Assembly (NCBI GenBank): GCA_963663765.2
Contig: CAXXUA010000006.1
Coordinates: 457,610 to 521,609, forward strand
DNA length: 64,000 nt
Origin: Candidatus Poribacteria bacterium
GTDB lineage: Bacteria > Poribacteria > WGA-4E > WGA-3G
Direction: 5' to 3'
Positions 3,566-62,862 of the stretch are shown here, piece after piece. The position numbers and the translations under genes were made by a program. Each line of letters starts with the position of its first letter. Positions within the stretch are counted from its first letter, which is position 1. The notes beneath the pieces were generated by a model. The model did not search any database. It had not been told where the DNA came from and saw nothing but the letters and a program-made list of their open reading frames with translations.

Positions 3566-3600
3566 TATTTTCACTGTGAAGTAGTGTTTTCACAGTGTAA

Positions 3601-3622
3601 GGCAGGGCTTTTGTGTCCTGCC
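3601..3622. terminator. GC-rich intergenic hairpin (possible terminator or mRNA-stabilising stem)
   Basis: ggcagg-gcttttgtgt-cctgcc followed by an A-run; a variant recurs at about 24983-25004. Confidence 0.4.
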
Positions 3623-3650
3623 AAAAAATAAAATAAGTAAGGGGAATTGT

Positions 3651-36849: not shown

Positions 36850-39800
36850 ATGTTATTTTTGAAATTATCTATATTAACTATTCTATTGTGTGCCTTGACA
36901 ATTCTTAGCACAGCAGGAAATATAAGTATAACGCCCGTAGCATCCCGCACAGTGCAAGTGCGCGATGCAATCGTTAATGCGATACCGAATGTGAATACTT
37001 CAGCCGATGTTACCACAGCGCAGCTTGCCACCATTACCTCACTTGATTTACGCGGTAAAGGTATCACTGCGCTCCAATCAGGTGACTTTTCCGGGCTCAC
37101 TTCACTTACGAACCTTAATTTATATAACAACGAACTGAGTAGTCTTCCAGATGGCATCTTTGAAGGACTGACTGCTCTGACAGCGCTCCGTTTAGGGAAG
37201 AACAAGGTTACTCCCTTACCCTTTACTGTGTCTCTTGAAAAAGTCGGAGATGGACAATTCAAGTCAGTCGTCCCCACAGGTGCGCCGTTTGACATCGTGG
37301 TGCCGATTACTGCCACAAACGGCAGCATCAGCAGCGGGACAACCTCAGTCACGATCATCAAAGGTAGCACAACAAGCACTAGCCTGACCGTTACACGCAC
37401 CGCTGGCACAACTGCCGTGGTATCCGTTGATATCGGTACACTCCCCACTCTGCCCATTAATCATTACGGTTATATGTTATCCAAATCTGATACTTTACCG
37501 GTGGAAGTTATTTCACGATTAGAAAACCCTCCCACAGAAGAAACACCAGACACAACAGAAACAGACGATAGCCCCGCACCAAACACCGCACCGATATTTG
37601 TTGACGGTACTATCACGGTCCGATCAATTGCAGAGAATACGGCTGCGGATGTGGATATTGGCACTGCAGTGGGTGCAACGGATGTAGATGAGGATGCACT
37701 TACTTATACGCTGAGGGGCACTGATATGTCATCATTTACCATTGATAGCAGTTCGGGACAACTGAAAACAAAATCAGCGTTAGACTATGAAACGAAACGA
37801 ATATATACGGTAACAATCACTGCTTCTGATGGTAATCTAATTGCCACAATCTCTGTCATTATTAGCGTTATAGATGTTGCAGAGATGGCTTTAACGACGA
37901 CATTCCTGACTGTAAGTAACCGCACACCAGCAGTCCGTGATGCGATCGTTACCGCTGTGCCGGGTATCAGCACAGCAGAAAATATAACTGTCGCACACCT
38001 TGCATCTATTACCTCACTTGATTTACGCGGTAAAGGTATCACTGTACTCCAATCAGGCGACTTTTCCGGGCTCACTTCACTTACGAACCTTAATTTATAT
38101 GGCAACATGCTCAGCCGATTACCGATAGGTGTGTTTGAAGGATTGACTGTTCTGACAAGCCTCCGATTAGGCGGAAACCTCGTTGACCCGATGCCGTTGA
38201 TAGTGTCGTTGCAGCGGATCGGGATAGGTAGATTCAGAGCACTCATCCATACAGGGGCACCATTTGATGTCGTGCTGCTTATAAACAATGCGGATACAAC
38301 AACGATCACAATTCCAAAAGGTAGTGTCCAAAGTCCTGTCTTTACATCAACATCGGCAAATGTGAGTATAGGTGCATTACCCTCACTCCCCGCAAATCAT
38401 TACGGGTATATCCTTGCGAAATCCACTGCCTGCAACCGCACGTCTCAAGTAAGCGATGGTATTGTAGCAGCACTTTCAGATATAACTGACTGCCGAAACG
38501 TTACTGATGTTGACCTCGCCTCCATTACATCACTTAATTTGTCAAATGCATCTATCACATCGCTTGAGGCGGGCGATTTTGAAGGCATGTTATTACTCAC
38601 AACGCTTGACCTGAGCAATAACCAGTTGACCGAACTCCCCGATCACATTTTTGAGGGTTTGTTGTCATTGACACATCTTAATCTGAGCGGAAACGCGGCA
38701 GCACCTCTCTTGATACCTTATTCTTTAGAAAAGGTCGGCAGTAATCAATTCAAGGTAGTAGTGCCGACAGGCACACCGTTTAACATACAGATGCCGATCA
38801 GTGTGACAAATGGCAGTGTTGCGGGTGACGTGAATGCTATCACACTTCCTGTCGGTACTATTCAGAGCATGCCATTTGCTGTTACTCGGACACCTAACAC
38901 GATGGGTGCTGTTATGGTAGGCTTCGGAACGTTACCTAATCTACCAGCATCACATAGTGGTTATGCGCTTGCTAAATCTAATACGTTAGAGATGTCCGGT
39001 GCTATTAATGTTGCCCCTGTGTTTACAGAAGGTACGACAACCATACGAAGTATTGCAGAGAACACGGCTGTAGGCACAAACATCGGTAATACCATCAGTG
39101 CGACAGATGCCAACAACGATACTTTGACATATAGTTTGAGTGGGTCGGATGCAGCAGCGTTTGATATTGATAAATTAACTGGTCAATTGAAAACTAAGAC
39201 TGCACTTGACTATGAAACGAAGAATTCCTATTCCGTAACAATCACCGTGAGTGATGGAACACTCACAGATACGATAGATGTCACCATCAACATCACAGAT
39301 GTTGATGAGAACCGCGCCCCGGTCTTCACAGAAGGAGGCACCACGACACGCACCATTTCAGAAAACACCGATGCAGGTGTCAACATCGGTAATCCTGTGA
39401 GTGCAACAGACCTTGATAAAGACACGCTCATCTACTCGCTTGTGGGAAATGCCGCAGCATTTGACATTGTTAGCACAACAGGACAGTTGAAAACAAAGGC
39501 TGCGCTTGATTATGAAACCCGAACCTCTTATTCAGTGTCGGTCAGTGTTACTGATGGAAAACTGACCGACACAATAGCCGTTACAATCAACATCACAGAC
39601 GTAGACGAAACACCATTGAAAGCGGATGAGGTCGTCGTTCTACTTGATGAAGACGAAGATGATATTGTCGTAACCACTGATGACGATAAAGAGGAAACAC
39701 CGACACCAAATAATGCACCTGTCTTCACAGATGGGAACAGCACCATGCGCTCTATAGCGGAAAATAGGGTTAGCGGAATGGATATTGGTAGTGCAGTATC

Positions 39801-42800
39801 TGCGACGGATGCGGATGGCGATACGTTAGCCTATACCTTCGGTGGAACAGATGCAAGTTCATTTACGATTGATAGCAGTTCAGGGCAATTGAGAACCGGG
39901 GAAGCATTGGATTTTGAAACGAAAAACGCTTATTCCGTTACTATTACCGTTTCTGATGGGAATGGTGGTAGCGATAGCATAAGTGTCACCATTAACGTCA
40001 CGGATGTAGATGAAGCACTGCCAAATAACGATCCTGTATTTACAGCGGGTGATAGAGTCAGCCGTTCTGTAGATGAGAATACCGGCTCAGGTGTGAACAT
40101 CGGTGACCCAGTTTCTGCAACTGATGCGGATGATGATATACTCAGCTATAGTCTCGGTGGAACGGATTTCAGTTCATTTACGATTGATAGCAGTTCAGGC
40201 CAGTTGCGCACCTACGCATCGCTGGATTATGAGACCAAATCCACTTATTCAGTGACAATAAGTGTTTCTGATGGTAAGGGTGGTAGCGATTCGATCTTGG
40301 TTGCCATCAACATTACCAATGTAGACGAAACAGTGCCAAACAGTGCGCCTGTGTTCGCATTGGACAGTACCACGCGTTCAGTTGCGGAAAATACGGCGGC
40401 AAATACAAACATTGGTGCTGCTATCACCGCAACAGATGACGACAACGATAGCTTGACTTACGGTCTTAACGGGACAGACGCGGCTTCTTTTAGTATTGAT
40501 GTCAACACTGGACAACTGAAAACAAAGATAGACCTCAATCACGAAACAAAAGACTCCTATTTGGTAACCGTATCGGTTTCTGATGGCAAAGGTGGTACAG
40601 ACAGCATTAGTGTCACGATTAATGTGTCAGATGTAAACGAATCCCCTGAGTTTACGGATGGTGCTACCACAACACGCGCCATTGCAGAGAACGCCGGGGC
40701 AGGTGCCAACATCGGAATTGCTGTATCTGCAACCGATCCTGATGATGGGGAAACGCTCACCTACACGCTGGGCGTAACAGACGGTGCAGCTTTTGATATT
40801 GGTAATACGACTGGTCAGTTAAAAACGAAAGCAGCCCTTGATTACGAAACCAAAAACTCTTATTCAGTTATCATGATTGTATCTGATGGAACACTTTCAG
40901 ATACAATCATGGTAACAATTAACGTCACAAACTTGGACGAAACACCCTCCAACAATCCACCTGTTTTTACGGATGGGAATAGCACGATCCGCACGGTAGC
41001 AGAAAATACAGTGGCTGGCACAAATATCGGCACCCCTATTTCTGCAACCGATGTGGATAATAACACACTCACTTATCTACTGAGTGGGGATGATGCCTCA
41101 TCGTTTGGCATTGTTAGCACGACAGGGCAACTCCAAACCAGGGCATCACTCAACCACGAAATCAAAGACGAGTATGAGGTCATGGTCACCGTTTCTGATG
41201 GCAGCACTACCGATACTATCATGGTGACGATTAGCGTCACAGATGTCAACGAATCCCCCGTTTTTGTAAATGACAGCATAACACGATCTGTCGCAGAAAA
41301 CACAGCTGCGAATACTAACATCGGCAGTGCCATTACCGCTACCGACCCCGATGGCAATAATTTGACGTATACACTCGGTGGTACCGATGCAACGTCGTTT
41401 AATATTGATGAGGACACAGGCCAACTGAAAACAAAGGCAGCACTGGACTATGAAACCAAAAGAGTATATTCCGTCACTATCACTGCCAAAGACGAAGACA
41501 ACCTCAGCGAAAGTATCAACGTAACCATCAATATCACAGATGTAGACGAGAACCGGGCACCTGTGTTTACAGAAGGAGACAGCACCGCACGTTCTGTCGC
41601 AGAAAATACGGGGAGTGGTGTAAATATCGGCACACCTGTGTCCGCAACTGATGCGGATGGTGATACGCTTGAATATACGTTAAGTGGCACTGATGCGGCA
41701 TCCTTTGATATTGATAGCATAACAGGGCAGCTCCGCACAAAGGCTGCGTTGGATTATGAAACGAAAGACACATATTCCGTAATAATAACTGCCTCTGACA
41801 GCAAACTTTCAGACACTATCACGGTAACGATTAATGTGACGAATGTTGATGAGAACCGTCCACCTGTGTTTTTGAGTGAAAGCACAACGCGTTCCGTTGC
41901 TGAAAATACAAGCTCTGGTATGGACATTGGCAGTGCCGTTTCGGCAAATGACCCCGATGGTGATGATTTGACATACACGCTCAGTGGCACAGATGCAACG
42001 TCGTTTGATATTGATGAGGACACAGGCCAACTCAAAACAAAGGCAGCACTGGACTATGAAACCAAAAGGTCATACGCCGTCACCATCACTGCCAAAGACG
42101 AAGACAATCTCAGCGATAGTATCAATGTAACCATTAATGTTACTAATGTAGACGAGAACCGGGCACCTGTATTTACAGAAGGTAGCAGCACGACACGTTC
42201 TGTCGCAGAAAATACGGGGAGTGGTGTAAATATCGGCACACCTGTGTCCGCAACTGATGATGATCAAGATACACTTACTTACACACTCGGTGGTACTGAT
42301 GTAGACTCCTTTGATATTGACACTGCCACAGCACAACTGAAAACAAAGAACGCATTAGATTATGAGATAAAGTCATCTTATTCACTCACTATTACAGCAA
42401 TGGATGGAAATAGCGGAGAAGATACCATTGATGTTACCATCAATGTCACCGATGCAAACGATCCACCCATTTTTACAGATGGAGATAGCACCACACGTTC
42501 AATTGCAGAGAACACACCACGAAATAAAATTATCGGTGATAGGGTGGTAGCAACGGATGTAGATGGTGACAAAGTGACCTACAGTCTCAGTGGCACAGAT
42601 ATGAACTCGTTTGGGATCAGACCAAACATCGGACGATTGGTAACCAAGGCATCGCTTGACTTTGAAACAAAAAGCACGTACGAGGTGACTGTCACCGCAT
42701 CCGATAGCAATGGTGGCATTGACACGATTGATGTGGCTATCCATGTCATTGATGTCAATGATGCCCCAGTGTTTACAGATGGAGATAGCACCACACGTTC

Positions 42801-45800
42801 TGTCGCAGAAAATACTACGGCGGATACTGATATTGGTACACCTGTGTCCGCAACCGATGATGATCAAGATACGCTTACTTACATACTCGGTGGCACCGAT
42901 GCAGCATCGTTTGATATCGTTAGCACAACAGGACAACTGAAAACAAAGAACGCTTTAGATCATGAGACAAAGTCGTCTTATACGATCACTATCACCGTTG
43001 ACGATCAAAACGGAGGTGAAGATACCATCAACGTCACGGTCAACATCACCGATGTAACAGAATCCTTGCTTGAAGGGCGTACCGGTGCGGTACGTTCGGC
43101 TATATTAAGTAAATTGTCCGGTGTAGATGCCGATGACGTTACAGCAGAACACCTCGCATCAATTACCGAAATCGTTATTTCAACGCAATCACCTAAACTT
43201 GGGGATTTTGATGGACTCGCAGGTTTGGTAAGGTTGTATATCGGACATAATCTGATACGTTCATTGCCGGCGGGTATTTTTGATGATCTCGTTAACCTGG
43301 AATATATTGGTCTGGGCCTCAATCTGTTTGAAACATTGCCGGGAGGTTTATTTGATAATAATACAAAACTGAAGACTATCCTTTTGGATATTGGCGAGTT
43401 AAGATCGCTGCCGGGAGGTTTATTTGATAATAATACAGAGTTGACAAAGATTGATCTACACGATAACAAATTGTCATCATTACCGACAGGGTTCTTCAAC
43501 AATAACACAGAACTGGTAACTCTCGATCTCAGTAGGAATCAGATACATTCATTACCAACAGGATTTTTTGACAATAATACCAAACTGGAAAACCTACACC
43601 TTAATAGAAATGGGTTGCATTCATTGCCAAGCGGTATTTTTGATAAGCTTACTAAGCCGACATCCCTCAATCTTGATAGCAACAACTTAGAATCGCTGCC
43701 TGCTGGTGTATTCGACACTCTCACGTTACTGAATACACTTGAACTCCGAGATAATAAGTTGACTACGTTACCAAACAACATTTTTGATAAAAACACGGCA
43801 CTGACACATCTATATCTGCAAAGGAACGAATTGACTTCGTTGCCAAGCGGTGTTTTTGACAAGCTCACTAATCTAACCAGACTGGATCTGAACAATAATG
43901 AATTGTCATCGTTTCCCACGGGTATCTTTGACAAACTGACTAACCTGACATTTCTCAAAATGTATGACAATGATTTTACTTCGTTGCCAAGTAGCATCTT
44001 TGACAAACTTATAAACCTGACAAGGCTTGATTTACGACAAAACGGGTTGACTTCGTTGCCGGACAATATATTTAAGGGACTCACAGAATTGAGCGAGGTG
44101 AAATTGGAATCTAATGCGGTGGACCCACTATCAGTGACTGTTTCTCTGGTTAAGGTAGAATCAGGTAAGTTCAAGACAACAGTTCATACCGGCGCACCAT
44201 TTGATATAAACTTACCTATTACCGTTGTAAATGGAAGTCTCAGCGGTGGAACGACAAGTATTTCTATTTCCACCGGTAGCATTGAAAGTAATACATATAC
44301 GGTGACACGCACTACTGGCACAACGGGTGCTGTTACTGTGAATATTGGAACATTGCCAACAATACCCAGTGATCATTCCGGATATGCCCTAGTTAAACCC
44401 ACAACAGGTTTGCCGTTAATAGTCATTGATGAAAATGTGGTGAATACAAAAGGCGCAAATATAGACGAAACGCCAATCAATCCGCCACTCAACGGGCGCA
44501 CACAACAGGTGCAGGATGCGATTGTTGCCGCTATTGATGGGATAGATTCTGCTGACGATGTGACAGCAGAACACCTCGCAGCAATTACATCATTGTATCT
44601 AGATCAAAATTCGATCACCTCGCTAAAATCTGGTGATTTTGATGGACTAAGTGCTTTGTCAACTCTCACTCTGTCCGGCACGGGTTTGACCGCATTGCCT
44701 TCTGGTATTTTTGACAATAACACAGCACTGGAAACGCTCAATCTGTTCAACAACGATTTGACCTCATTGCCTTCCGGTATTTTTGACAATAACACAGCAC
44801 TGACAAGTATGCATCTGAACAATAATGCTTTGACCTCATTACCATCAGGTATTTTTGACAATAATACAGCACTGAATACGATCCGTCTGCACCTAAACGA
44901 TTTGACCTCATTGCCGTCAGGTATCTTTGACAATAATACAGCACTGAATACGATCAATCTGTCCAGCAACGGCACGGGTTTGGCGTCATTGCCCTCAGGT
45001 ATTTTTGACAATAACACAGCACTGAAAACGATCAATCTGCACGACAACGGTTTGACCTCATTGCCTTCAGGTGTCTTTGACAATAACACAACAGTGACAA
45101 CGATCTATTTGTACGACAATGCTTTGACCTCGTTGCCTTCCGGTATTTTTGACAATAATACAGCACTGAAAACGATCTATTTAGCCGAGAATTCTTTGAC
45201 CTCATTATCTTCAGATGTCTTTGACAATAACACAGCAGTGACACGTATTGAGTTGTCCGGTAATTCTTTGACTTCATTGCCTTCAGGTGTCTTTGACAAC
45301 AACACAGCAGTGACAACGATCCATCTGTACAATAATGCTTTGACCTCGTTGCCTTCCGGTATTTTTGACAATAACACAGCACTGAAAACGCTCTATCTGC
45401 AAATAAACGGTTTGACCTCATTGCCTTCCGGTATTTTTGACAATAACACAACACTGAAAACGCTCTATCTGCAAAACAACGAAATTAGCGATGTCTCGGA
45501 ACTTGAACATTTGACATCTCTAACGGATTTACAGATTGGTGGAAATCTAATTTCAGATTACGGGCCGCTTCGTAGACTCAGGGCAGCGAATCCTGATATT
45601 AAGTTTGATATTGATATTGATAACAATCCTCCTGTCTTTACAGATGGCAGCAGTACTACCCGCTCCGTATCTGAGAATACTACTGCAGGACAAAACATCG
45701 GCAGCGCCGTTACTGCCACAGATACGGACACCGAGAATACGCTTACCTATACGCTCGGTGGAACTGATGCATCATCATTCGATATTGTCAGCACATCGGG

Positions 45801-46995
45801 GCAGCTGCAAACAAAGGCAGCTCTGGACTATGAAACAAAGTCGTCGTATACGGTCACCGTTTCTGTCTCTGATGGCAATGGTGGCATAGATAGGATCACT
45901 GTCACCATCAACGTCACGAATGTAGCGGAAATAAGGACACCGGTCAATGAACGCACACAGCAGGTGCAAGATAGTATTGTTGATGCGATAGAAGGCGTTG
46001 ATAATGCTGATGATGTAACCATCACACACATCACATCAATTACCTCACTTGATCTGTCTAATGAATTAATTAGATCCATATCAGCCGGTGATTTTGACGA
46101 TCTTACAGCACTGACAACATTGAATCTGAGCAGTAATTCTTTGAGTTCTTTACCGTCGGGTATTTTTGACGATCTCACGGCACTGACAACACTCGACCTC
46201 AGTAGTAATTCTTTGAGTTCATTGCCTTCCGATATATTTGAGAAACTTACAAAATTAACAACACTTGACCTATACGAAAATTCCTTAAGCACATTGCCAT
46301 CAGGTCTCTTTAAAGGACTGACCGCGCTGTCATCACTGTTTATTGAAGATAACACCGTTGATCCGCTACTGATCATGGTATCATTGGAAAAAGTTATTGA
46401 TGGTCAGTTCAAGGCGGTTTGTCCTATTTGCGCACCATTTGATATTGAGGTACCGCTGACTGCCACGAACGGAACTATCAGCGACAATGCAACGAGTGTC
46501 ACTATTTCCACTGGGACGGTGGAGAGTGGGGTGGTCGCTATCACACGCACCGCTGGCACAACTGCTGCTGTCACCGTTGACATTGGCACTTTACCATCAT
46601 TGCCAGCATTACACGACGGGTACACACTTGTTAGAACTTCGTCAGATTTGCCGTTGACGGTAATCGACGCTATCCCCGAATCACCGAGACAGTTTACACC
46701 AGACAAAACCGCACTGCTGGCGAACTATCCCAATCCGTTCAACCCTGAAACGTGGATACCGTTTCAACTTGCTAAGTCTGTTGATGTCACGCTGACGATT
46801 TACGATGTCCGTGGTGTTGTGGTGCGTAAGATGTCGTTAGGGTATAAACTTTCTGGCGTATATACGAACCGTCGTCGTGCTATCCACTGGGATGGTCGAA
46901 ATATGCATGGTGAAAAAGTTGCAGGTGGTGTCTATTTTTATCACTTCAAAGCAGGAAATTATAGTGCTTTGCGTAAGATGTTGATTTTGAAATAG
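36850..46995 (+). CDS. Giant cadherin-repeat/LRR surface protein, paralogue 5 (3381 aa)
   Basis: Signal peptide, 3 short LRR modules, 15 cadherin units, three terminal LRR blocks (about 43070-44130, 44490-45560 and 45940-46365) and the C-terminal tag. Confidence 0.93.
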   Translation: MLFLKLSILTILLCALTILSTAGNISITPVASRTVQVRDAIVNAIPNVNTSADVTTAQLATITSLDLRGKGITALQSGDFSGLTSLTNLNLYNNELSSLPDGIFEGLTALTALRLGKNKVTPLPFTVSLEKVGDGQFKSVVPTGAPFDIVVPITATNGSISSGTTSVTIIKGSTTSTSLTVTRTAGTTAVVSVDIGTLPTLPINHYGYMLSKSDTLPVEVISRLENPPTEETPDTTETDDSPAPNTAPIFVDGTITVRSIAENTAADVDIGTAVGATDVDEDALTYTLRGTDMSSFTIDSSSGQLKTKSALDYETKRIYTVTITASDGNLIATISVIISVIDVAEMALTTTFLTVSNRTPAVRDAIVTAVPGISTAENITVAHLASITSLDLRGKGITVLQSGDFSGLTSLTNLNLYGNMLSRLPIGVFEGLTVLTSLRLGGNLVDPMPLIVSLQRIGIGRFRALIHTGAPFDVVLLINNADTTTITIPKGSVQSPVFTSTSANVSIGALPSLPANHYGYILAKSTACNRTSQVSDGIVAALSDITDCRNVTDVDLASITSLNLSNASITSLEAGDFEGMLLLTTLDLSNNQLTELPDHIFEGLLSLTHLNLSGNAAAPLLIPYSLEKVGSNQFKVVVPTGTPFNIQMPISVTNGSVAGDVNAITLPVGTIQSMPFAVTRTPNTMGAVMVGFGTLPNLPASHSGYALAKSNTLEMSGAINVAPVFTEGTTTIRSIAENTAVGTNIGNTISATDANNDTLTYSLSGSDAAAFDIDKLTGQLKTKTALDYETKNSYSVTITVSDGTLTDTIDVTINITDVDENRAPVFTEGGTTTRTISENTDAGVNIGNPVSATDLDKDTLIYSLVGNAAAFDIVSTTGQLKTKAALDYETRTSYSVSVSVTDGKLTDTIAVTINITDVDETPLKADEVVVLLDEDEDDIVVTTDDDKEETPTPNNAPVFTDGNSTMRSIAENRVSGMDIGSAVSATDADGDTLAYTFGGTDASSFTIDSSSGQLRTGEALDFETKNAYSVTITVSDGNGGSDSISVTINVTDVDEALPNNDPVFTAGDRVSRSVDENTGSGVNIGDPVSATDADDDILSYSLGGTDFSSFTIDSSSGQLRTYASLDYETKSTYSVTISVSDGKGGSDSILVAINITNVDETVPNSAPVFALDSTTRSVAENTAANTNIGAAITATDDDNDSLTYGLNGTDAASFSIDVNTGQLKTKIDLNHETKDSYLVTVSVSDGKGGTDSISVTINVSDVNESPEFTDGATTTRAIAENAGAGANIGIAVSATDPDDGETLTYTLGVTDGAAFDIGNTTGQLKTKAALDYETKNSYSVIMIVSDGTLSDTIMVTINVTNLDETPSNNPPVFTDGNSTIRTVAENTVAGTNIGTPISATDVDNNTLTYLLSGDDASSFGIVSTTGQLQTRASLNHEIKDEYEVMVTVSDGSTTDTIMVTISVTDVNESPVFVNDSITRSVAENTAANTNIGSAITATDPDGNNLTYTLGGTDATSFNIDEDTGQLKTKAALDYETKRVYSVTITAKDEDNLSESINVTINITDVDENRAPVFTEGDSTARSVAENTGSGVNIGTPVSATDADGDTLEYTLSGTDAASFDIDSITGQLRTKAALDYETKDTYSVIITASDSKLSDTITVTINVTNVDENRPPVFLSESTTRSVAENTSSGMDIGSAVSANDPDGDDLTYTLSGTDATSFDIDEDTGQLKTKAALDYETKRSYAVTITAKDEDNLSDSINVTINVTNVDENRAPVFTEGSSTTRSVAENTGSGVNIGTPVSATDDDQDTLTYTLGGTDVDSFDIDTATAQLKTKNALDYEIKSSYSLTITAMDGNSGEDTIDVTINVTDANDPPIFTDGDSTTRSIAENTPRNKIIGDRVVATDVDGDKVTYSLSGTDMNSFGIRPNIGRLVTKASLDFETKSTYEVTVTASDSNGGIDTIDVAIHVIDVNDAPVFTDGDSTTRSVAENTTADTDIGTPVSATDDDQDTLTYILGGTDAASFDIVSTTGQLKTKNALDHETKSSYTITITVDDQNGGEDTINVTVNITDVTESLLEGRTGAVRSAILSKLSGVDADDVTAEHLASITEIVISTQSPKLGDFDGLAGLVRLYIGHNLIRSLPAGIFDDLVNLEYIGLGLNLFETLPGGLFDNNTKLKTILLDIGELRSLPGGLFDNNTELTKIDLHDNKLSSLPTGFFNNNTELVTLDLSRNQIHSLPTGFFDNNTKLENLHLNRNGLHSLPSGIFDKLTKPTSLNLDSNNLESLPAGVFDTLTLLNTLELRDNKLTTLPNNIFDKNTALTHLYLQRNELTSLPSGVFDKLTNLTRLDLNNNELSSFPTGIFDKLTNLTFLKMYDNDFTSLPSSIFDKLINLTRLDLRQNGLTSLPDNIFKGLTELSEVKLESNAVDPLSVTVSLVKVESGKFKTTVHTGAPFDINLPITVVNGSLSGGTTSISISTGSIESNTYTVTRTTGTTGAVTVNIGTLPTIPSDHSGYALVKPTTGLPLIVIDENVVNTKGANIDETPINPPLNGRTQQVQDAIVAAIDGIDSADDVTAEHLAAITSLYLDQNSITSLKSGDFDGLSALSTLTLSGTGLTALPSGIFDNNTALETLNLFNNDLTSLPSGIFDNNTALTSMHLNNNALTSLPSGIFDNNTALNTIRLHLNDLTSLPSGIFDNNTALNTINLSSNGTGLASLPSGIFDNNTALKTINLHDNGLTSLPSGVFDNNTTVTTIYLYDNALTSLPSGIFDNNTALKTIYLAENSLTSLSSDVFDNNTAVTRIELSGNSLTSLPSGVFDNNTAVTTIHLYNNALTSLPSGIFDNNTALKTLYLQINGLTSLPSGIFDNNTTLKTLYLQNNEISDVSELEHLTSLTDLQIGGNLISDYGPLRRLRAANPDIKFDIDIDNNPPVFTDGSSTTRSVSENTTAGQNIGSAVTATDTDTENTLTYTLGGTDASSFDIVSTSGQLQTKAALDYETKSSYTVTVSVSDGNGGIDRITVTINVTNVAEIRTPVNERTQQVQDSIVDAIEGVDNADDVTITHITSITSLDLSNELIRSISAGDFDDLTALTTLNLSSNSLSSLPSGIFDDLTALTTLDLSSNSLSSLPSDIFEKLTKLTTLDLYENSLSTLPSGLFKGLTALSSLFIEDNTVDPLLIMVSLEKVIDGQFKAVCPICAPFDIEVPLTATNGTISDNATSVTISTGTVESGVVAITRTAGTTAAVTVDIGTLPSLPALHDGYTLVRTSSDLPLTVIDAIPESPRQFTPDKTALLANYPNPFNPETWIPFQLAKSVDVTLTIYDVRGVVVRKMSLGYKLSGVYTNRRRAIHWDGRNMHGEKVAGGVYFYHFKAGNYSALRKMLILK
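44685..45480 (+). repeat. 72-bp LRR-coding repeat, 11 copies, with a constant half and a variable half
   Basis: ttgacctcattgccttccggtatttttgacaataacacagcactg (LTSLPSGIFDNNTAL) alternates with a variable segment of about 27 bp. Confidence 0.92.
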
Positions 46996-47003
46996 GCGTG
47001 TCT

Positions 47004-47898
47004 GAATCGCGGATTACACGGAGGTTCGCGGATAAGACCTCTTAGTAGGAGCGACCTCCTGGTCGCGACCGTGTTTATACAATACGCCTGAACAGTCGCG
47101 ACCGGGAGGTCGCTCCTACCGACGGGGGTGTTGTTTGTCTGAACCGGGATTTTCAGGATTTACCTCATTGTAATCAGTCCATCCTGTGAATCCTTGTTCA
47201 GACAGAATCGCGGATTACACGGATTGCGCGGAGGTTCGCGGATAAGACCTCTTGGTAGGTGCGACCTCCTGGTCGCGACCGTGTTTATACAATACGCCTG
47301 AACAGTCGCGACCGGGAGGTCGCTCCTACCGACGGGGGTGTTGTTTGTCTGAACCGGGATTTTCAGGATTTACCTCATTGTAATCAGTCCATCCTGTGAA
47401 TCCTTGTTCAGACAGAATCGCGGATTACACGGATTGCGCGGAGGTTCGCGGATAAGACCTCTTGGTAGGTGCGACCTCCTGGTCGCGACCGTGTTTATAC
47501 AATACGCCTGAACAGTCGCGACCGGGAGGTCGCTCCTACCGACGGGGGTGTTGTTTGTCTGAACCGGGATTTTCAGGATTTACCTCATTGTAATCAGTCC
47601 ATTCTGTGAATCCTTGTTCAGACAGAATCGCGGATTACACGGATTGCGCGGAGGTTCGCGGATAAGACCTCTTGGTAGGAGCGACCTCCTGGTCGCGACC
47701 GTGTTTATACAATACGCCTGAACAGTCGCGACCGGGAGGTCGCTCCTACCGACGGGGGTGTTGTTTGTCTGAACCGGGATTTTCAGGATTTACCTCATTG
47801 TAATCAGTCCATTCTGTGAATCCTTGTTCAGACAGAATCGCGGATTACACGGATTACACGGATTGCGCGGAGGTACGCGGATAAAACCTCTTGGTAGG
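47004..47898. repeat. 210-bp tandem array (4 copies plus a partial) of a REP/MITE mosaic (BIME-like)
   Basis: Units start at 47004, 47205, 47415, 47625 and 47835. Each full unit has a GTAG REP with 25-bp arms, a tgtctgaac...gttcagaca hairpin and 9-bp ggattacac-type subrepeats. Confidence 0.93.
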
Positions 47899-48055: not shown

Positions 48056-51000
48056 CTAAGATTTTGGGAGTGTATATAGTCCTCGTTTGACTCGGACAAT
48101 CTCCCCCTTATCAACAAGCCGAGAAAGTGCATAGTTTATCGCCTGTGGCATTCCATCAAGTGCAGCAACTAACTCGGCTGTTTTTTTCTCACCATCAGCC
48201 AGCAAAGAAAGTATTTCATCTCGGTAAGGGGCACGTAAGATATTCCTACCTCTCATCTTTTGTAGGATACGGTTCGCTTGCCGGACAGAGCATCCCAAAA
48301 TACGCTCCACTTCTTCTCTGCTTGTTTCAGCAGTAATACTTTCTCGTTCAGTTTCAAAACGTTGTCTTGTGCGTATCGTCTCCGCAAACCTATCTATCCC
48401 ACCGGCAATCTCAAAATCTTCCCAGTCAAAAAGTAGGACTTCCGGTCTGTTAGTGATATTCGGTAGTTCTAAACTTGATATTAAAACGATTTTTTTGTCT
48501 GTGAAACGATCTAATCCCGCTTTCCCGATAATCTGTGTGAGTATACTAATTACTTCTTCTTCATAAACACTTTGTACGCGTTCATCTTTGTAGTATCCTG
48601 TTTCTGAATCTCTTTCATGACGCAGCGGATTAACGTCATTTCCAAACAGAATATGTGCTCTTGACCAAACAGCACGCGGTCCGACTTCTGGTGTGCTGAC
48701 GACCCAGATAACATCTGCTGCCCCAAAGACTGCTTCAAATCTTTCTATTTCCTCAAAGTGCGTTACGAAACAAACGTTTTCTTTCTGGGCAGCAGCTCTT
48801 AAGTGTCTGATCAGTGTGCTATGCGTGATAATTGCATGCTTTACACTCGGTACTCTCTCAACTTCTGCAAGAATAGAAAGAAATAAATGTTGTCCAAGTT
48901 TAGACATACCGATATATTGCCAATTCTTGTCAACGTCTAACATCATATTCCGAGGATAGGTGCCTGTTCGTATTTGAAAAAGGTTATTCCCTGGTAACCA
49001 TGTAGCAGGTTTAATACGAATGACTTGTCTTTCCTCGTTTGAAAATGCCTGTGGGAGATGTCTATCTAGGTTGGTAGAAGATATTAACAATAAACGTTTG
49101 ACATCTTGGTGCAGCACGGGTGGCACTCGGAACTTTAGGATTTTGTCATCCCATTCCATCGGCGGATTATTACCCGTAGAATAGTGTGTACAGAAACATT
49201 TGAGTTGATGCCAATACGTCCAATTCGGGTTTTGACAAACGGTCGGGAATCCATTTATGTTTTCAACAGTTTCGGTATCCAAAATGTCTAACTGAATGGC
49301 TCGTGCCATAGACAGCGGTACTCCTTTTCTCGGCACTTTGACTTGACACATCTGTTCAATGATCATTTCTTCCTGCCATTCAAACATCTTGATTACAAGC
49401 CGAATCCTATTGGCAGCCTCTGTCTGGGATTTATATTTGATTTCTAAAGCATTCAATAAGACTTTAGCAAAATCGCCTAAAACATCTCCTTGCCAGTTCA
49501 CAGTCCACTCTTCTATCTGTTTTCTTGAAAGTTCACACTCAGGGAATAATCTAAAGAAACGTATCCCATTTATGATACATAGCCGTTCTGTATTATCCTT
49601 TTGTTTGAGCATTTTTCTGGCAATATCAGCATATTGTGGATTGAATAACAGTTGAGGTATAGCCGTTACTTGTGTCTTTGCATGCTGTAATGTGTGGTAT
49701 TGTGATAAATAGCCGTGAACTTGACATGTTTTATAGACGGGACACTGCGGACAGATACTTTCACTCGCGTTGCCACCCTTTTTTTCAAGACTATCACACC
49801 GTTCAGCATCTTCACACATATTTCCATGTTGGAATGGGTTTGCCATGCGTTCATCAACACGGATGTCTTTCACTTTTTCCCATAGATGCATGCGAGGTTT
49901 CCAGCGAACGACTGACTGTGAACTCTGCTGAATTCGTTGTTCTGCTGCTTCTGCTAATTTGCTACTTGGTAGATTTATGCAAGTTGGGTAATTGGTGAGG
50001 AGATCCAATTCCAATTCAAAGTTTTTTTCTTCATTGTTTTCAGTCACCAGAGCAATAACTCGGTTATTTTGATCAAAAGAATGTTTTAACTTGTCCGCAA
50101 TCTGTTCTGTAGGATTTTCTACTGTATGCGTAAGTTCTGACTTCTTTAGTATCGGTGTTGAGCGTTTTATCGCCAGAGGACTCAGTTTTCCTTCTTGCAC
50201 AGCCAATATCTCACTGCTAATAGGCATCCCCGCATCGGGTATCTGTGGCAGTATGCCAGTATCGTCCCAAACATCTGTGATTGGTGTAGCAGTCGTCGGT
50301 ATGCCAAAACCATCTGTGGATGCACATACCCAAACAATGTGTTCGCTTTCCCACAATGCAACATGTCCATCATCAACATTGTCAAAGTTTTTATTCCAAA
50401 GGTGAGTGTTGTTATCTTTTCGAAAATAAGAAAAACCGCGTTTTAGAAATGCTTGCTTTGCAAGATTAAGCAGATATGAACCAAGATCTAAGGGAGTCAT
50501 ATTAGGTTTAATCTTCGGTTTATCTGTTCCATACGATACCGGTTCGTGAAGCTCAGCACGAAGGGCATTGATAGGTGCAAACAGGACTTCTTCTGCAATA
50601 ACAGGCGGATCTAATAAGTTTCCAAGCAGGATTTCGTGGCGTGCATCCCAGCAACTATATGCCTCTTGCGCTAACATCTCAAGAAAGACAACACGTTGAT
50701 GTGGATCTTCCGATGTCGGTGTACCTTTATGAATATAATATGTTGCCTCAGCGGTATTTGGATGGAGGTAATCCTGCACCCTACAAGAAAAGCGTAAACC
50801 TCCTGATTTTGTTAATGTCAAGAGTGGGTTTTCAACAAAATTAACAAGTGCTTCAACACAGAGATGAACAGCATCTGGGGCAGCACATATTCCCGCGTAA
50901 GTAAATACAATGTCATGCCAGTGTGCCCCGTCTTGTCCGGAGGACGTGCCAGTATAAACGTTAATACCCCACGAGTTATCCCACCTTTCCATCGCCCAAT

Positions 51001-51190
51001 TTGTTATCCCTTGGCGTTGAAAAAAACGGTCTCCGCCAAAGAAACTCGGACCATGGTCATTTTCAGGGGCGCGCCCTATCGGCATAAAGGATATACCAGC
51101 ATCCTCTATATCATCAAGAAGCACAGAATAATTGCGGGCACAATAGACTGTGTGTTGATGCGGATAGCCTCTGTTGTGAACGGCGGGCAT
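48056..51190 (-). CDS. Large putative DNA-replication/processing protein: degenerate prim-pol-like N-terminus, Cys-cluster helicase-like middle, C-terminal winged HTH
   Basis: WGINVYTG...WHDIVF...LTKSGGLRFS resembles prim-pol motifs; CEDAERC...ICPQCPVYKTC; RDEILSLL...TAELVAAL...AINYALSRLVDKGEIVRVKRGLY. The ORF is open to 51289; the ATG at 51190 has an AGGA upstream. Confidence 0.6.
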   Translation of the reverse strand: MPAVHNRGYPHQHTVYCARNYSVLLDDIEDAGISFMPIGRAPENDHGPSFFGGDRFFQRQGITNWAMERWDNSWGINVYTGTSSGQDGAHWHDIVFTYAGICAAPDAVHLCVEALVNFVENPLLTLTKSGGLRFSCRVQDYLHPNTAEATYYIHKGTPTSEDPHQRVVFLEMLAQEAYSCWDARHEILLGNLLDPPVIAEEVLFAPINALRAELHEPVSYGTDKPKIKPNMTPLDLGSYLLNLAKQAFLKRGFSYFRKDNNTHLWNKNFDNVDDGHVALWESEHIVWVCASTDGFGIPTTATPITDVWDDTGILPQIPDAGMPISSEILAVQEGKLSPLAIKRSTPILKKSELTHTVENPTEQIADKLKHSFDQNNRVIALVTENNEEKNFELELDLLTNYPTCINLPSSKLAEAAEQRIQQSSQSVVRWKPRMHLWEKVKDIRVDERMANPFQHGNMCEDAERCDSLEKKGGNASESICPQCPVYKTCQVHGYLSQYHTLQHAKTQVTAIPQLLFNPQYADIARKMLKQKDNTERLCIINGIRFFRLFPECELSRKQIEEWTVNWQGDVLGDFAKVLLNALEIKYKSQTEAANRIRLVIKMFEWQEEMIIEQMCQVKVPRKGVPLSMARAIQLDILDTETVENINGFPTVCQNPNWTYWHQLKCFCTHYSTGNNPPMEWDDKILKFRVPPVLHQDVKRLLLISSTNLDRHLPQAFSNEERQVIRIKPATWLPGNNLFQIRTGTYPRNMMLDVDKNWQYIGMSKLGQHLFLSILAEVERVPSVKHAIITHSTLIRHLRAAAQKENVCFVTHFEEIERFEAVFGAADVIWVVSTPEVGPRAVWSRAHILFGNDVNPLRHERDSETGYYKDERVQSVYEEEVISILTQIIGKAGLDRFTDKKIVLISSLELPNITNRPEVLLFDWEDFEIAGGIDRFAETIRTRQRFETERESITAETSREEVERILGCSVRQANRILQKMRGRNILRAPYRDEILSLLADGEKKTAELVAALDGMPQAINYALSRLVDKGEIVRVKRGLYTLPKS

Positions 51191-51480
51191 TATCTCTGTC
51201 CTACGTTGCCGAAGTGGATTCTTGCGCCGTTCGTGGCAAAGTGATATTAGATTTTTTAAGATATTATTCATAATTCTATAGTAATACAAACTTGCTTTTT
51301 ATTCAAGAAATCATCTTGAATAAAGTTCTAAAACTCTATCCCACCTACGAAACACAAGATTCAATAGAAAATAATTGTTTTATATTTATAAATAGTTGAC
51401 TTAATATGATATTAAAGTAATAATATATTATATTGACATATATTTATTATGACTCACGTCTTACAAGGGAGAGTGGTATT

Positions 51481-54254: not shown

Positions 54255-56465
54255 ATGAAAATAAAAACAACAACTTCGCTACTAATCTTTTCTATCTTAG
54301 CAACACTCAGTCTGTCAAACGGTTTTGCCCAATATGCACCTCACATGCAAGTGGGTTTACCCGAAGGGGCAATAGCTCGCCTTGGAACAGGACCTTTCAA
54401 TGATTTCAGACCTACCTTTGCATATTCGCCTAATGCGAAAAATCCGCAATTGGCTGTTCCGGGTTTAATTGGGATCTGGCTCTACGATGCTGAGACATTA
54501 CAGGCACGCGACTTGCTTTCAAAACCCTATCCTAATGTTGTGAGTATGAATTACAGTCCCGATGGGAACACTCTCGTAACTGGGTATTACGATGGAAACA
54601 TAGATTTGTGGGATGTCGCCACAGGAGAACTCCGCAAAACCATTACTCCACATCCGAGCATAGCCTATTGGGATGAATCAGCTGGTCATTGGCGACATAA
54701 CTTCTCCAGATTTCGCCGTTTTGCCACAAGCGTGAGTTTCAGTCCAGATGGTACCATCCTTGCTGCAGGTATCGACAATGGTACAATAGAATTTTGGAAT
54801 GCTACCACGGGAGAATTTCATAAAATCCTTGATGGCCATCATGAAACAATTGATAATCCTGCTGAAATGGGGGTAAGTTTCAGTAACGATGGTACTACAC
54901 TTGCTTCTACGAGTAAATATAGCGAAGTACATTTGTGGGATGTCGCCACAGGAAAACTCCGCAAAACTCTTGGAAGACAGAGTGGGGGAACAGAGAGCGT
55001 GAGTTTTAGTCCAGATGGTAACACGATGGCAACCTATAATAGTTATGGAACAATACATTTATGGAATGTTGCCACTTATGAACTGATTCAAACCTTTGAA
55101 AAACCCGTCGAGTTGATTGACCAAATAAATTTAAATGCTAACATCACTTTCAGCCCTGATGGTAGCACTATAGTTACATATTCTCACAATACAATCTCAC
55201 GTAAACGTGCACTATATCTATGGGATGTTCCCACAGGCACAATACGTGATATCCTCAATGGACCTTATTCTTGTGTCGAACACATGAGTTACAGCCCAGA
55301 TGGGAATACCCTCGCAGTTTTAACGAATCAAGGAGTTTTCATCTGGGATGTCATCAAGAGGGAAATTCGCGATCGGATCAAAGAAGAAATACTAAATCCT
55401 CACAGCGCAATCAGTCCTGATGGGGAGACACTTGCTACTGGACATCTTCTTTGGGATATTTCTATAGGTGCAATACGCAATTATTCTCTTGAAGGACATA
55501 TCGGTTTTATAAGAGACGTTTCATTCAGTCCGGATGGCAAAAGTCTTGCTATTGCTGTCTATAACTGGGTCTATTTGTGGGATGTCCCAACAGGAACACT
55601 TCGCAATATCTTTAAAGGGCATACCGATACCGTTATGAGTGTGGAATTCAGTCCCGATAGCAGCACAGTCGCTTCTGGGAGTGTCTATTTCCAGCCTGAT
55701 TATCTGTTAACGGAACCTGCTACTTCTACTCTGAACACAAATATGGAACAGAAGAAAAAAGGCGAATTGTTATTATGGGATGTCTCCACTGGACAACAGA
55801 AAAACAATTTTATGAAACATGTCGGGAATGTCTATAGCATAAGTTTTAACTTTGATAATAGCTACCTCGCTGTAGCGAGTGACAACAACGTATATTTGTT
55901 GGACGCTGTCACCGGTGAAACTTCTAAATTCTTCCCGAATCCCGGCAATGTCTATAGTGTAAGTTTCAGTCCCGATGGCAACTCCATTGCTACAGGGAGT
56001 GATGATAAGGTGCGTTTGTGGGATATCACCACAGGCACTATCCGCACATTTGACACAATCTTTAATGATCATACGCCAAATATCAGGAGCGTTAAATTTA
56101 GCCCTGATGGTAGGACACTCGCAGCAAGCATCTACAATACAGTTCATTTGTGGGATATCGCTACGAGTGACACCATCACCGTCTTCAAAGGACATGCAGC
56201 TGATGTTTACAGAGTTAATTTCAATGATGATGGTACCATCCTGGCATCTGGAAGTATTGATGGCACGTTACTTCTATGGGAAGTTAGAGTGTCAAAACAA
56301 CTCAAAGAGGATATCAATGATGATAGTGTTGTCAATATCCAGGACCTGGTTTTGGTTGCCGCACAGTTCGGGCAAACAGGGGACAATAAAGAGGATGTGA
56401 ATGGCGATGGCGTTGTCAATATCAAAGATCTCGTCTTGGTAGCCGCCGCATTTAGGAAAGATTAG
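54255..56465 (+). CDS. Secreted WD40-repeat protein with C-terminal dockerin-like pair
   Basis: LPEGAIARLG.G leader; many SVSFSPDG.TLA...LWDV.TG repeats; DINDDSVVNIQDLVLVA / DVNGDGVVNIKDLVLVA. Confidence 0.92.
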   Translation: MKIKTTTSLLIFSILATLSLSNGFAQYAPHMQVGLPEGAIARLGTGPFNDFRPTFAYSPNAKNPQLAVPGLIGIWLYDAETLQARDLLSKPYPNVVSMNYSPDGNTLVTGYYDGNIDLWDVATGELRKTITPHPSIAYWDESAGHWRHNFSRFRRFATSVSFSPDGTILAAGIDNGTIEFWNATTGEFHKILDGHHETIDNPAEMGVSFSNDGTTLASTSKYSEVHLWDVATGKLRKTLGRQSGGTESVSFSPDGNTMATYNSYGTIHLWNVATYELIQTFEKPVELIDQINLNANITFSPDGSTIVTYSHNTISRKRALYLWDVPTGTIRDILNGPYSCVEHMSYSPDGNTLAVLTNQGVFIWDVIKREIRDRIKEEILNPHSAISPDGETLATGHLLWDISIGAIRNYSLEGHIGFIRDVSFSPDGKSLAIAVYNWVYLWDVPTGTLRNIFKGHTDTVMSVEFSPDSSTVASGSVYFQPDYLLTEPATSTLNTNMEQKKKGELLLWDVSTGQQKNNFMKHVGNVYSISFNFDNSYLAVASDNNVYLLDAVTGETSKFFPNPGNVYSVSFSPDGNSIATGSDDKVRLWDITTGTIRTFDTIFNDHTPNIRSVKFSPDGRTLAASIYNTVHLWDIATSDTITVFKGHAADVYRVNFNDDGTILASGSIDGTLLLWEVRVSKQLKEDINDDSVVNIQDLVLVAAQFGQTGDNKEDVNGDGVVNIKDLVLVAAAFRKD

Positions 56466-56949: not shown

Positions 56950-57765
56950 ATGCAAAAATGGTTTAAACTTCCACTCTTCATACTTTTCGTTATGCTTTTT
57001 TTCAGTTATGTTGCAGCAGCGAGTTTACAAGATGGTTTACTTGTCTATTGGTCATTTGATGAAGCGGATGGAACAACTGCTTCTGACGTGTTAGGAAATG
57101 GCAACGAAGCAACACTTACAGGTAGTGCCAGTTGGGAACCCAACGGTGGAAAAATTGGTGGTGCTTTGAAGCTTGATGGCAGCGCCGGTAGCTCCGCTGA
57201 AGATAGCAACGGGGCAAACTACATCAATGGACTTACTGCTTTTTCAGTCTCAGTCTGGGTAAAATCCGCAGCGGATAACTCCGATAGAGGCATTTTTCAC
57301 GGCATTGATCCTGATGGAGGAGATGTTGTATTTACGCTACGCTATGATTCCGCTGGTTTTACTGGAGGCGGTACAAACGTTATCAAAATAGGCATTAATA
57401 CAACCGGTGGTCCACAACAGTATGAAAGTGCAAGTGGGGTACAAACTACTGAATGGCAACACCTTATTATAACGTGGAGTAGTGGCAACCAATTCGCTCT
57501 CTACATCAATGGCGAACTTGATGAACCAACCGATAATTACGATGGCGTGGAAGGTGAAATCACCGATGCCACAAAATTCGTGATCGGAAAAGGTGGCAAA
57601 GATGCCAACGCCTCATGGAACGGTCTGATTGACGAACTCCATCTCTACAACAGGGTACTAGACGAAACAGAAATTACAAGCTTAGCATCCGGCATTAATG
57701 TCACCCCCGTTGAAGTGCGTGGCAAATTAGTAACTGTTTGGGGTAACCTAAAACATCTATGGTAA
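56950..57765 (+). CDS. Secreted LamG/concanavalin A-like domain protein
   Basis: LLVYWSFDE...GKIGGALKLDG...FSVSVWVK...WQHL..TW...LYING...GLIDELHLYNRVL; tail PVEVRGKLVTVWGNLK. Confidence 0.9.
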   Translation: MQKWFKLPLFILFVMLFFSYVAAASLQDGLLVYWSFDEADGTTASDVLGNGNEATLTGSASWEPNGGKIGGALKLDGSAGSSAEDSNGANYINGLTAFSVSVWVKSAADNSDRGIFHGIDPDGGDVVFTLRYDSAGFTGGGTNVIKIGINTTGGPQQYESASGVQTTEWQHLIITWSSGNQFALYINGELDEPTDNYDGVEGEITDATKFVIGKGGKDANASWNGLIDELHLYNRVLDETEITSLASGINVTPVEVRGKLVTVWGNLKHLW

Positions 57766-57875
57766 AACCGCTTATGGATAATAACACAGTAGGCGTACTT
57801 CGTAGTGCGTCTACTATGAAAAAACAAGATTAAACTAATTAATTTGTTTTTAGATTAGTTAGTTTGGAGGAAAAA

Positions 57876-58685
57876 ATGCGTAACCAACTATTGCTTATAG
57901 TATTTACTCTCATATTCACTGTGTATTTCAGTACATTTACAGGTGCAGGTATTAACGATGGTTTAATCGTTTACTATCCCTTTGATGAAACATCCGGCAC
58001 CTCAGCAACAGATGATAGTAAGAATGGAAACGATGCAGAACTCACTGGTACTGCTGCATGGGCAACTGACGAAGGAAAAATTGGTGGTGCTTTAAGACTT
58101 GATGGGTCAGCAAGTTCCGCAGAAGATGCAGATGGTGCAGACTATATCAACGGACTTGAGGAATTTTCCGTCTCTGTCTGGGTTAAATCTGATACTGCAC
58201 CGCACGACAGAGGTATATTCATCGCAAAGGATCCTGAGGGTGGTGATGATACATTTACTCTACGATACGATTCCGCTGGTTTTAAAAATACCGCAGCAGT
58301 AAGTCTGATAAAAGCAGGTTTTACAACCACAGGTGGCGGAATTCAGTATGAGAGTGCTGACAACACACAAACGACAGAATGGCAACATATAGCGATTACG
58401 TGGAGTAGTGGTGATCCTGTTATGTTATATATTGATGGAACACTCGATGAACCCCAATATAATCAAGATATAAGAAACGGATCCATTTCAAATGCAACTA
58501 AATTTATTGTTGGACAAGGTGGTAAGGATAACGGAGGAACCTCATGGACAGGTCTAATAGATGAACTCCGTATCTACGACAGGATCATAGATGCAAACGA
58601 AATTGACGAATTAGCATCTGGTGTCCTTCCCGTTGAACCAATTGGAAAGTTAGCAACCACTTGGGGAGACCTCAAGCAAGATTAA
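57876..58685 (+). CDS. Secreted LamG/concanavalin A-like domain protein (tandem paralogue)
   Basis: Same motifs; RBS ggagg before the ATG at 57876; tail PVEPIGKLATTWGDLK. Confidence 0.9.
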   Translation: MRNQLLLIVFTLIFTVYFSTFTGAGINDGLIVYYPFDETSGTSATDDSKNGNDAELTGTAAWATDEGKIGGALRLDGSASSAEDADGADYINGLEEFSVSVWVKSDTAPHDRGIFIAKDPEGGDDTFTLRYDSAGFKNTAAVSLIKAGFTTTGGGIQYESADNTQTTEWQHIAITWSSGDPVMLYIDGTLDEPQYNQDIRNGSISNATKFIVGQGGKDNGGTSWTGLIDELRIYDRIIDANEIDELASGVLPVEPIGKLATTWGDLKQD

Positions 58686-62504: not shown

Positions 62505-62862
62505 TTATACCGTTTTCATGTGATAATGTCTCATTAGCAGCGGAAATCTGGTAGGAGTGACCTCACGGTCGCGACCGGGAGGTCGCTCCTACCGAAGAGA
62601 GTAACCCCCTGCCAGTAAACAGTAGAATTCCTTAATGAGACAAGATTTATTTGAATTGGTATTATACCATTTTCATGTGATAATGTCTCATTAGCAGCGG
62701 AAATCTGGTAGGAGTGACCTCACGGTCGCGACCGGGAGGTCGCTCCTACCGAAGAGAGTAACCCCCTGCCAGTAAACAGTAGAATTCCTTAATGAGACAA
62801 GATTTATTTGAATTGGTATTATACCATTTTCATGTGATAATGTCTCATTAGCAGCGGAAATC
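62505..62862. repeat. 157-bp tandem array (2 copies plus a partial) of a MITE enclosing a GTAG REP
   Basis: Units at 62505, 62662 and 62819. Outer IR atacc...tgtctcatta / taatgagaca...ggtat; inner gtaggagtgacc...ggtcgctcctac. The third unit is interrupted by ISAs1. Confidence 0.88.

Follow-up and report, generated by a model that had tools for sequence, protein, structure and literature searches.

A tandem array of leucine-rich repeat (LRR) units in a Candidatus Poribacteria genome presents a nearly constant framework that alternates with segments differing from one unit to the next. A sequence-only reading of this locus likened the layout to the LRRV modules of lamprey and hagfish VLRs and to TALE repeats, and it proposed that unit shuffling combined with diversification could yield a programmable binding surface. 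The question raised by the locus is whether the segments are rewritten by a dedicated system or whether the array is an inherited binding domain. We analyzed the array within its window (i.e., the whole stretch of 64,000 nucleotides) and within its genome (6.35 Mb in 15 contigs; 97.8% complete). On the basis of the results given below, the array is probably the germline-encoded, ligand-binding solenoid of an LRR module in a giant secreted or cell surface adhesin of a sponge symbiont belonging to Candidatus Poribacteria.

Anatomy of the array and its host protein

The array (positions 44686 to 45483, + strand) consists of 11 LRR units in tandem. Unit 4 is 78 bp long and encodes 26 residues, while each of the other ten has 72 bp and encodes 24. 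Tandem Repeats Finder reported the array at 44685 to 45481 (period, 72; copies, 11.0; matches, 80%; score, 831), and no other long array with a 72-bp period occurs in the 64-kb window. It corresponds to residues 2613 to 2878 of a 3381-residue protein. The features of the gene are listed below (P0057 and P0081 are homologous proteins, and contig C3 of the same genome carries a paralogue).

36850..46995, + strand: giant cadherin and LRR protein, intact ORF of 3381 aa (ORF call; Pfam, Cadherin in 15 stretches, LRR_8 in 19, and Big_9 in 10)
36850..36918, + strand: probable N-terminal signal peptide (hydrophobic stretch recognized on visual inspection of the sequence)
43399..44118, + strand: older, more diverged typical-class LRR array with 8 motif-matching units (scaffold entropy, 0.98 bit; scaffold nucleotide identity, 0.60)
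44485..44685, + strand: N-terminal cap made of helices and a first irregular LRR, without cysteine, conserved in P0057 (model, H11-22, H33-37, E41-45, and E65-70)
44686..45483, + strand: LRR array of 11 typical-class units, 10 of 24 aa and 1 of 26 aa (repeat finding, unit parsing, entropy, dN/dS, and model)
Unit starts 1 to 11, + frame: 44686, 44758, 44830, 44902, 44980, 45052, 45124, 45196, 45268, 45340, and 45412
45484..45582, + strand: C-terminal capping repeats ISDVSELEHLTSLTDLQIGGNLISDYGPLRRL, common to the contig C3 paralogue and P0057/P0081 (model, E353-357 and H365-373)
45613..45879, + strand: cadherin domain immediately past the LRR module (best stretch of Pfam Cadherin_CELSR2_9th, residues 2922-3010)
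46726..46986, + strand: C-terminal sorting-like domain (FlgD_ig/Por_Secre_tail), below curated cut-offs (Pfam and NCBIfam)

Each unit contains a scaffold of 15 residues that is almost invariant across the 11 units. The exact sequence LTSLPSGIFDNNTAL occurs in 5 of the 11 units, and the remaining six deviate from it by one to four residues. Nine of the 15 scaffold positions show no amino acid variation (entropy, 0), and none of the remaining six exceeds 0.85 bit. Entropy rises to 1.8 to 2.7 bits at unit positions 16, 19, 21, 22, and 24. The near-constant framework and the 11 variable segments described in the sequence-only reading were recovered, every segment being reproduced exactly. Diversity does reside in the 27-bp segment that had been called hypervariable, but four of its nine residues, at positions 17, 18, 20, and 23 (T, I/L/M, L, and N, respectively), are conserved, so that the variable part consists of five residues rather than a 27-bp block. 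At the nucleotide sequence level, the mean pairwise identity between units is 0.89 in the 45-bp scaffold versus 0.64 in the 27-bp segment.

The scores of the C-terminal domain of the protein were 24.9 bits for FlgD_ig (cut-off, 27), 18.3 for Por_Secre_tail (27), and 21.3 for NCBIfam TIGR04183 (23). Six paralogous giant genes, including that of the array, lie in the window, and four paralogues there pass the FlgD_ig cut-off. The window also carries genes for two DDE transposases, one WD40 protein, and two Laminin_G_3 proteins. Across the genome we found 17 LRR-rich stop-to-stop frames (at least three typical-LRR motifs), 16 of which have an NPFNP motif near the C terminus. An FDNNT array comparable to that in the window occurs in only one other frame, on contig C3 (12 FDNNT/FNNNT motifs; a 12-unit array).

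The combination of cadherin and LRR domains in one giant protein is shared with homologues in sponge-symbiont genomes. Kamke et al. (2014, PMC3909097) reported that Poribacteria encode LRR and cadherin proteins that carry signal peptides and C-terminal domains of the Por type. The protein described here agrees with those eukaryote-like proteins of Poribacteria and sponge symbionts in phylum (as judged from its nearest relatives) and in its LRR, cadherin, and bacterial Ig domains, and its C-terminal domain, below the cut-offs, resembles their Por-type domains. The portion of that report considered here gives domain counts rather than the anatomy of single arrays, and neither a homogenised FDNNT array nor unit dynamics are mentioned in it. 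According to the same portion, the structural genes for Por secretion were not found in poribacterial single-cell genomes. We infer that the protein is exported to the cell surface. It may bind a host (i.e., sponge) or matrix ligand and play a role in symbiont-host adhesion or recognition. Among the matches listed for the literature on LRR proteins of Poribacteria and sponge symbionts, no title concerned a homogenised LRR array in a sponge symbiont, and no paper treated sponge symbionts, leucine-rich repeats, and diversifying selection jointly.

Repeat class and relatives

The units belong to the typical class of LRRs. The protein matches Pfam LRR_8 at 456.4 bits (cut-off, 27; 19 stretches) and LRR_4 at 224 bits, and the array exhibits the 24-residue period, the LxxLxLxxN motif, and a solenoid with one short beta-strand per unit; it has Asn (FDNNT) where the canonical FDxL has Leu. 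A single-sequence AlphaFold2 model of the module (mean pLDDT, 78.6; pTM, 0.71) contains one short strand in each unit. DSSP placed these strands at unit positions 17 to 22 in 7 of the 11 units, while in the other four the strand starts earlier or ends one residue short. The strand of an LRR lines the concave face of the solenoid. In the model, positions 19 and 21 are predicted to point outward from the strand, and positions 16, 22, and 24 to flank it. The claim that variation falls on the concave positions of xxLxLxxN thus agrees with both the entropy profile and the modeled strands, which put the variable residues in or beside the beta-strand.

Among PDB sequences, the top matches were engineered LRRTM2 (5a5c; E, 1.9e-57), a Toll/VLR chimera, LRRC15, Toll, and designed LRRs. 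VLRs ranked lower (VLR A, 2o6q, E, 5e-38; VLR B, 2o6s, E, 9e-32). A Foldseek search with the module model likewise placed LRRTM2, designed LRRs, and Toll first. Since LRRTM2, Toll, and LRRC15 outscore the VLRs, the match is to the typical 24-residue LRR class and is not VLR specific. The similarity to VLR LRRV modules noted earlier is real, in that VLR A and VLR B do match, but it is a class-level resemblance; VLRs are one member of the class and not a specific relative of the array. LRRTM2 (5a5c), Drosophila Toll (4lxr), and LRRC15 (9oib) share with the array the repeat length and the consensus LxxLPxGxFDxLxxLxxLxLxxN, and they are its best matches in both sequence (E, 1.9e-57 to 1.8e-49) and fold. 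They differ in being animal proteins with Cys-rich caps, whereas the module described here (residues 2541 to 2957) contains no cysteine, has the Asn of FDNNT, and sits inside a 3381-aa bacterial protein. Listeria internalins are bacterial surface LRR solenoids that bind a host receptor, and they appeared among the fold matches (1o6v, 2omw, and 4fmz), with weak TM-scores of 0.31 to 0.36. Internalins are built of 22-residue units and carry an LPXTG or GW anchor.

In species-representative genomes, we identified 43 related loci, about half of them from Candidatus Poribacteria MAGs and the rest from Dehalococcoidia, Nitrospirales, Vicinamibacterales, and other MAGs. The window protein itself forms a one-member cluster represented by 1 contig (among 5.8 billion protein clusters). 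Its module matched 941 proteins (1859 to 5917 aa) at an E value of at most 1e-20 among the 2567 scored; the source name of one homologue reads [quoted passage not shown] The best other protein among those scored, P0057 (62% identity), has the same N-cap, a 10-unit FDNNT array, and the same C-cap, followed by a cadherin domain. A search of 41 genomes, its own among them and 24 of the other 40 belonging to the same genus, turned up no close orthologous DNA; the array was matched best, at 68% identity, by the C3 paralogue in its own genome. A metagenome scan recovered 2 distant loci (52% and 22% identity).

Comparisons within this family reveal how the arrays change. Of the close relatives P0057 and P0081, one has exactly one 24-residue unit more than the other, and in P0057 an identical variable segment is found in three units. 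Over the nine units shared by these two proteins, 1 of 45 concave cells differs, versus 7 of 171 other cells. Two orthologous 6-unit arrays from different Poribacteria species (L003 and L004) are separated by 12 nonsynonymous codons, one of which is concave. A duplicated 9-unit array (L001) shows 6 differences in 648 nt, and three of its four nonsynonymous changes fall at position 21 or 22. When the window array is compared with that of P0057 unit by unit, 13 of 50 residues are identical at the five concave positions and 154 of 190 elsewhere, although the aligned units are perhaps not orthologous if units turn over. Units are gained and lost in the family, and in the short term the concave residues are conserved to the same degree as the others; it is in them that differences appear over longer times or by way of unit turnover.

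Segment rewriting, divergence, and selection

A VLR-like or otherwise programmed system (i.e., cassette gene conversion or a diversity-generating retroelement) could rewrite the segments in a population or cell line. Only the layout of a constant scaffold with variable concave residues, together with the sequence similarity to VLR repeat modules, speaks for such a system. Searches of the whole 6.35-Mb genome with the 11 segments and 11 units (blastn-short) yielded no donor cassette, all matches being at chance level or limited to the scaffold. The best out-of-array match for any 27-bp segment was 15 nt exact or 26 nt at 88% (E value of at least 0.07), and whole-unit matches outside the array were scaffold fragments in other LRR genes. 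No variable segment was common to other genomes among 232 units from 38 related loci, where the best cross-locus match was 7 of 9 residues with the four conserved ones counted. Reverse transcriptase (RVT_1) had 0 matches in the 97.8%-complete genome, control genomes being positive, and neither this enzyme nor the template copy of a diversity-generating retroelement target was found. The module lacks cysteine, the 15 Pfam hits of the protein include neither LRRNT nor LRRCT, and the differences between units involve more than one base type. Together with contigs that are identical in four runs and the missing short-term concave excess, these results make a programmed system highly improbable, and the programmable surface proposed in the sequence-only reading found no counterpart in the data. 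That the repeat was mis-assembled, or is an untranslated satellite, is less probable still. An array with a 72-bp period is difficult to assemble, and each scaffold copy interrupts the Logan contigs. However, the 10,146-bp frame stays open across the array, the period is a multiple of three with a sole length variant of +6 bp, each variable segment was found with its flanks at 0 mismatches in four runs, and homologous arrays occupy the same place in P0057 and P0081.

No sample examined departs from the array as assembled: in four runs, representing at most 4 samples from 2 studies, the same contig pieces tile it identically, with 0 other letters and 0 indels. The comparison is weak, since contigs lose rare variants and end at each scaffold copy and since the assembly itself may come from one of the runs. 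Low-frequency changes in unit number may therefore have escaped notice. The sampled words of the locus were present at 99% in five runs, four of which were compared; RNA was not on record among the runs carrying the locus. Joints in the placement of read contigs (skips of 247, 846, and 74 letters and one step back of 668) have sides of only 28 to 32 letters and lie at repeat copies, so they were taken as repeat cross-matches and not as variants. The idea of unit shuffling holds in part: relatives gain and lose units, as in the one-unit indel between P0057 and P0081, but no difference was seen among the contigs of the four runs.

The likeness to known variable systems is limited. VLR A and VLR B of lampreys and hagfish share with the array typical-class 24-residue LRRV-like units and diversity on the concave strand, and VLR assembly involves a cytidine deaminase (AID/APOBEC-type) step. 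Here, in contrast, the array belongs to a bacterial germline gene without donor cassettes, LRRNT/LRRCT caps, or variation between samples. TALE repeats are helical DNA-binding units of 33 to 35 residues with two specificity residues. The array has in common with TAL effectors only the logic of near-identical repeats differing at few specificity residues; its units form a 24-residue beta-solenoid, and their scaffolds are 80 to 98% identical at the nucleotide level, not near 100%. The TALE comparison is thus an analogy of layout.

For the scaffold, the Nei-Gojobori method applied to 55 unit pairs gave a dS of 0.35 and a dN of 0.06 (ratio, 0.17), which indicates that purifying selection, and not youth alone, maintains the scaffold. 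For the five concave codons, the same method (NG86) gave a dN of 0.86 and a dS of 0.31, a ratio of 2.8; it draws on 2.8 synonymous sites, and the positions were selected post hoc. Simple neutral simulations for these codons gave P values of 0 to 0.025. The concave divergence exceeds the synonymous prediction (pN, 0.51), so that purifying selection and relaxed constraint alone are insufficient to explain it. At the same five positions elsewhere, dN/dS was 0.78 in the C3 paralogue and 0.95 and 0.71 in two arrays of another Poribacteria genome. The same entropy profile is found in three other arrays and in P0057. The per-position comparison suggested with the original reading thus bore out the concentration of entropy at five positions, but the ratio of 2.8 is not robust.

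Other features of the units bear on the age of the array. For all 11 units, the three nearest units lie within this array itself and never in the C3 paralogue or L001. The scaffolds of units 2, 7, 10, and 11 are 1 to 2 of 45 nt apart (1 in four of the six pairs), and their variable segments are 12 of 27 nt apart in five of the six pairs, only the pair 10/11 being closer (4 of 27). Scaffold and variable-segment distances are not significantly correlated (Mantel r, 0.20; p, 0.16), a result that is compatible with decoupled histories but no proof of them. Relative to the older upstream array, scaffold entropy is 0.28 versus 0.98 bit and scaffold nucleotide identity 0.89 versus 0.60, while concave entropy is nearly equal (2.29 versus 2.22 bits). 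These values fit an array that is young or homogenised and whose concave residues changed fast; positive selection is not proved.

One refinement of the adhesin reading, which does not contradict it, is that the array is a germline arms-race domain, with diversifying selection acting on the concave face and gene conversion or the birth and death of units keeping the scaffold uniform. The binding surface would then turn over rapidly in evolution, as that of plant R-gene LRRs does. In plant R-gene/NLR LRRs, a conserved scaffold is combined with the fastest divergence at solvent-exposed strand residues (xxLxLxx) and with the gain and loss of units. The array shares this scaffold and strand pattern, and its relatives the gain and loss of units; it differs in LRR class, in kingdom, and from their intracellular immune role, and the diversifying selection of the plant genes contrasts with positive selection that is not robustly shown here. 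The concave ratio with its simulations, the near-identical scaffolds of units 2, 7, 10, and 11 beside their divergent segments, the uncorrelated distances, the concave entropy matching that of the old array, the low concave identity to P0057, and the one-unit indel between P0057 and P0081 all favor this refinement. It is opposed by the few synonymous sites and post hoc positions behind the ratio, the ratios below 1 in the three other arrays, the sparse concave changes between P0057 and P0081 and between L003 and L004, the doubtful orthology of the units aligned with P0057, and the four runs without variation. We regard it as possible, with the balance of probability against it. A homogenised scaffold beside a fully diversified concave face may nonetheless be the outcome of diversifying selection combined with the birth and death of units.

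The array as part of a probable adhesin module

The pattern is that of tandemly duplicated LRR units with a conserved scaffold and a diverged concave face, and the adhesin reading remains the one we favor. Under this reading, a 72-bp unit of the typical LRR class would have been duplicated in tandem within this lineage to give the 11 units. Purifying selection, possibly joined by gene conversion between units, would have kept the scaffold (LTSLPSGIFDNNTAL with T, I/L, L, and N). The five residues in or beside the beta-strand would have diverged between units, producing a nonperiodic concave face that presumably fits one extended ligand. The anatomy, fold class, and gene context of the array, the lack of cassettes in the genome and of variation among the samples, and the gain and loss of units in relatives are direct observations. 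The module is an ordinary inherited binding domain of the adhesin kind already described for Poribacteria, and the array opens no new category.

Sponge symbionts are rich in eukaryote-like repeat proteins. The array belongs to a clean, delimited module (i.e., N-cap, 11 units, and C-cap, with no cysteines), and its probable specificity residues can be read directly from the repeat pattern. The module therefore lends itself to use as a construct in binding and structural studies of symbiont-host recognition. More speculatively, and with a rather low probability, LRR arrays of this kind may be renewed over evolutionary time by unit birth and death and by gene conversion restricted to the scaffold, with positive selection replacing the five concave residues shortly after every duplication. 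If so, such arrays would parallel the VLR design in the germline and at the level of lineages, allowing a symbiont to keep matching or escaping a sponge surface molecule; the array in the window would then still be young, with a scaffold 89% identical in nucleotide sequence and a concave face that has already reached the diversity of an old array.

Organization and neighborhood of the probable adhesin genes

The window contains a row of six giant paralogues with cadherin and LRR domains (2-32811 and 36850-46995), the last of them being the 3381-aa probable adhesin gene that carries the 11-unit LRR array under study. The row is broken by a DDE_Tnp_1 transposase gene, and a second transposase gene with matches to the same two Pfam families extends past the window end. 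Further eukaryote-like repeat proteins (WD40 and Laminin_G_3) adjoin the adhesin cluster.

2-32811 and 36850-46995, + strand: giant cadherin + LRR paralogues; sizes in row, 1187+, 2884, 2568, 1164, 2567 and 3381 aa
20137-21300: DDE_Tnp_1 transposase gene
48056-51289, - strand: 1077-aa ORF; sole match, a short AbiEi_4 at the C-terminus
54255-56465: 736-aa WD40 protein, after the 1077-aa ORF
56950-58685: two Laminin_G_3 proteins, after the WD40 protein
62999-64000: second transposase gene

The largest LRR protein frame of this genome is encoded on contig C5, where a stop-to-stop frame of 6570 aa (+ strand, from 1059037) contains 29 typical-LRR motif matches and an NPFNP tail.

Directly 3' of the 3381-aa adhesin gene, a 210-bp tandem repeat (47010-47862; 4.1 copies, 98% matches) contains a long palindromic core, which it has in common with a 157-bp repeat (62505-62862; 2.3 copies, 99%) located close to the second transposase gene. 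The genome contains 229 occurrences of a 20-base piece from this core. The repeat appears to be a palindromic element distributed genome-wide.

Motif and possible duplication trace within the array

The convex-side motif DNNT (44713-44724 in the first unit and the equivalent place in the others) is invariant in all 11 units of the array. Its second Asn occupies the position that is held by a core Leu in the typical LRR consensus, and its NNT forms an N-x-T sequon.

A 12-base string coding for GTGL (44677-44688) bridges the pre-array unit and unit 1, and the same string is found again at the boundary of units 4 and 5 (44971-44982). Its repetition at this junction explains why unit 4 has 26 residues, two more than the other units. 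The recurrence may have been left by duplication of a block that took in the array start.

LRR arrays at other loci

In another Poribacteria genome (locus L001), an internal duplication of approximately 840 bp has copied an entire 9-unit LRR array:

1396-2043: 9-unit LRR array, one copy
3205-3852: 9-unit LRR array, other copy

These copies differ at 6 of 648 nt, with five of the six differences in the first unit. Two Dehalococcoidia MAG records, which are listed as different species representatives, have a 5-unit LRR array in common (L012, 4234-4593; L013, 3214-3573), with 0 differences in 360 nt. This identity could reflect either a very recent transfer or near-identical organisms.
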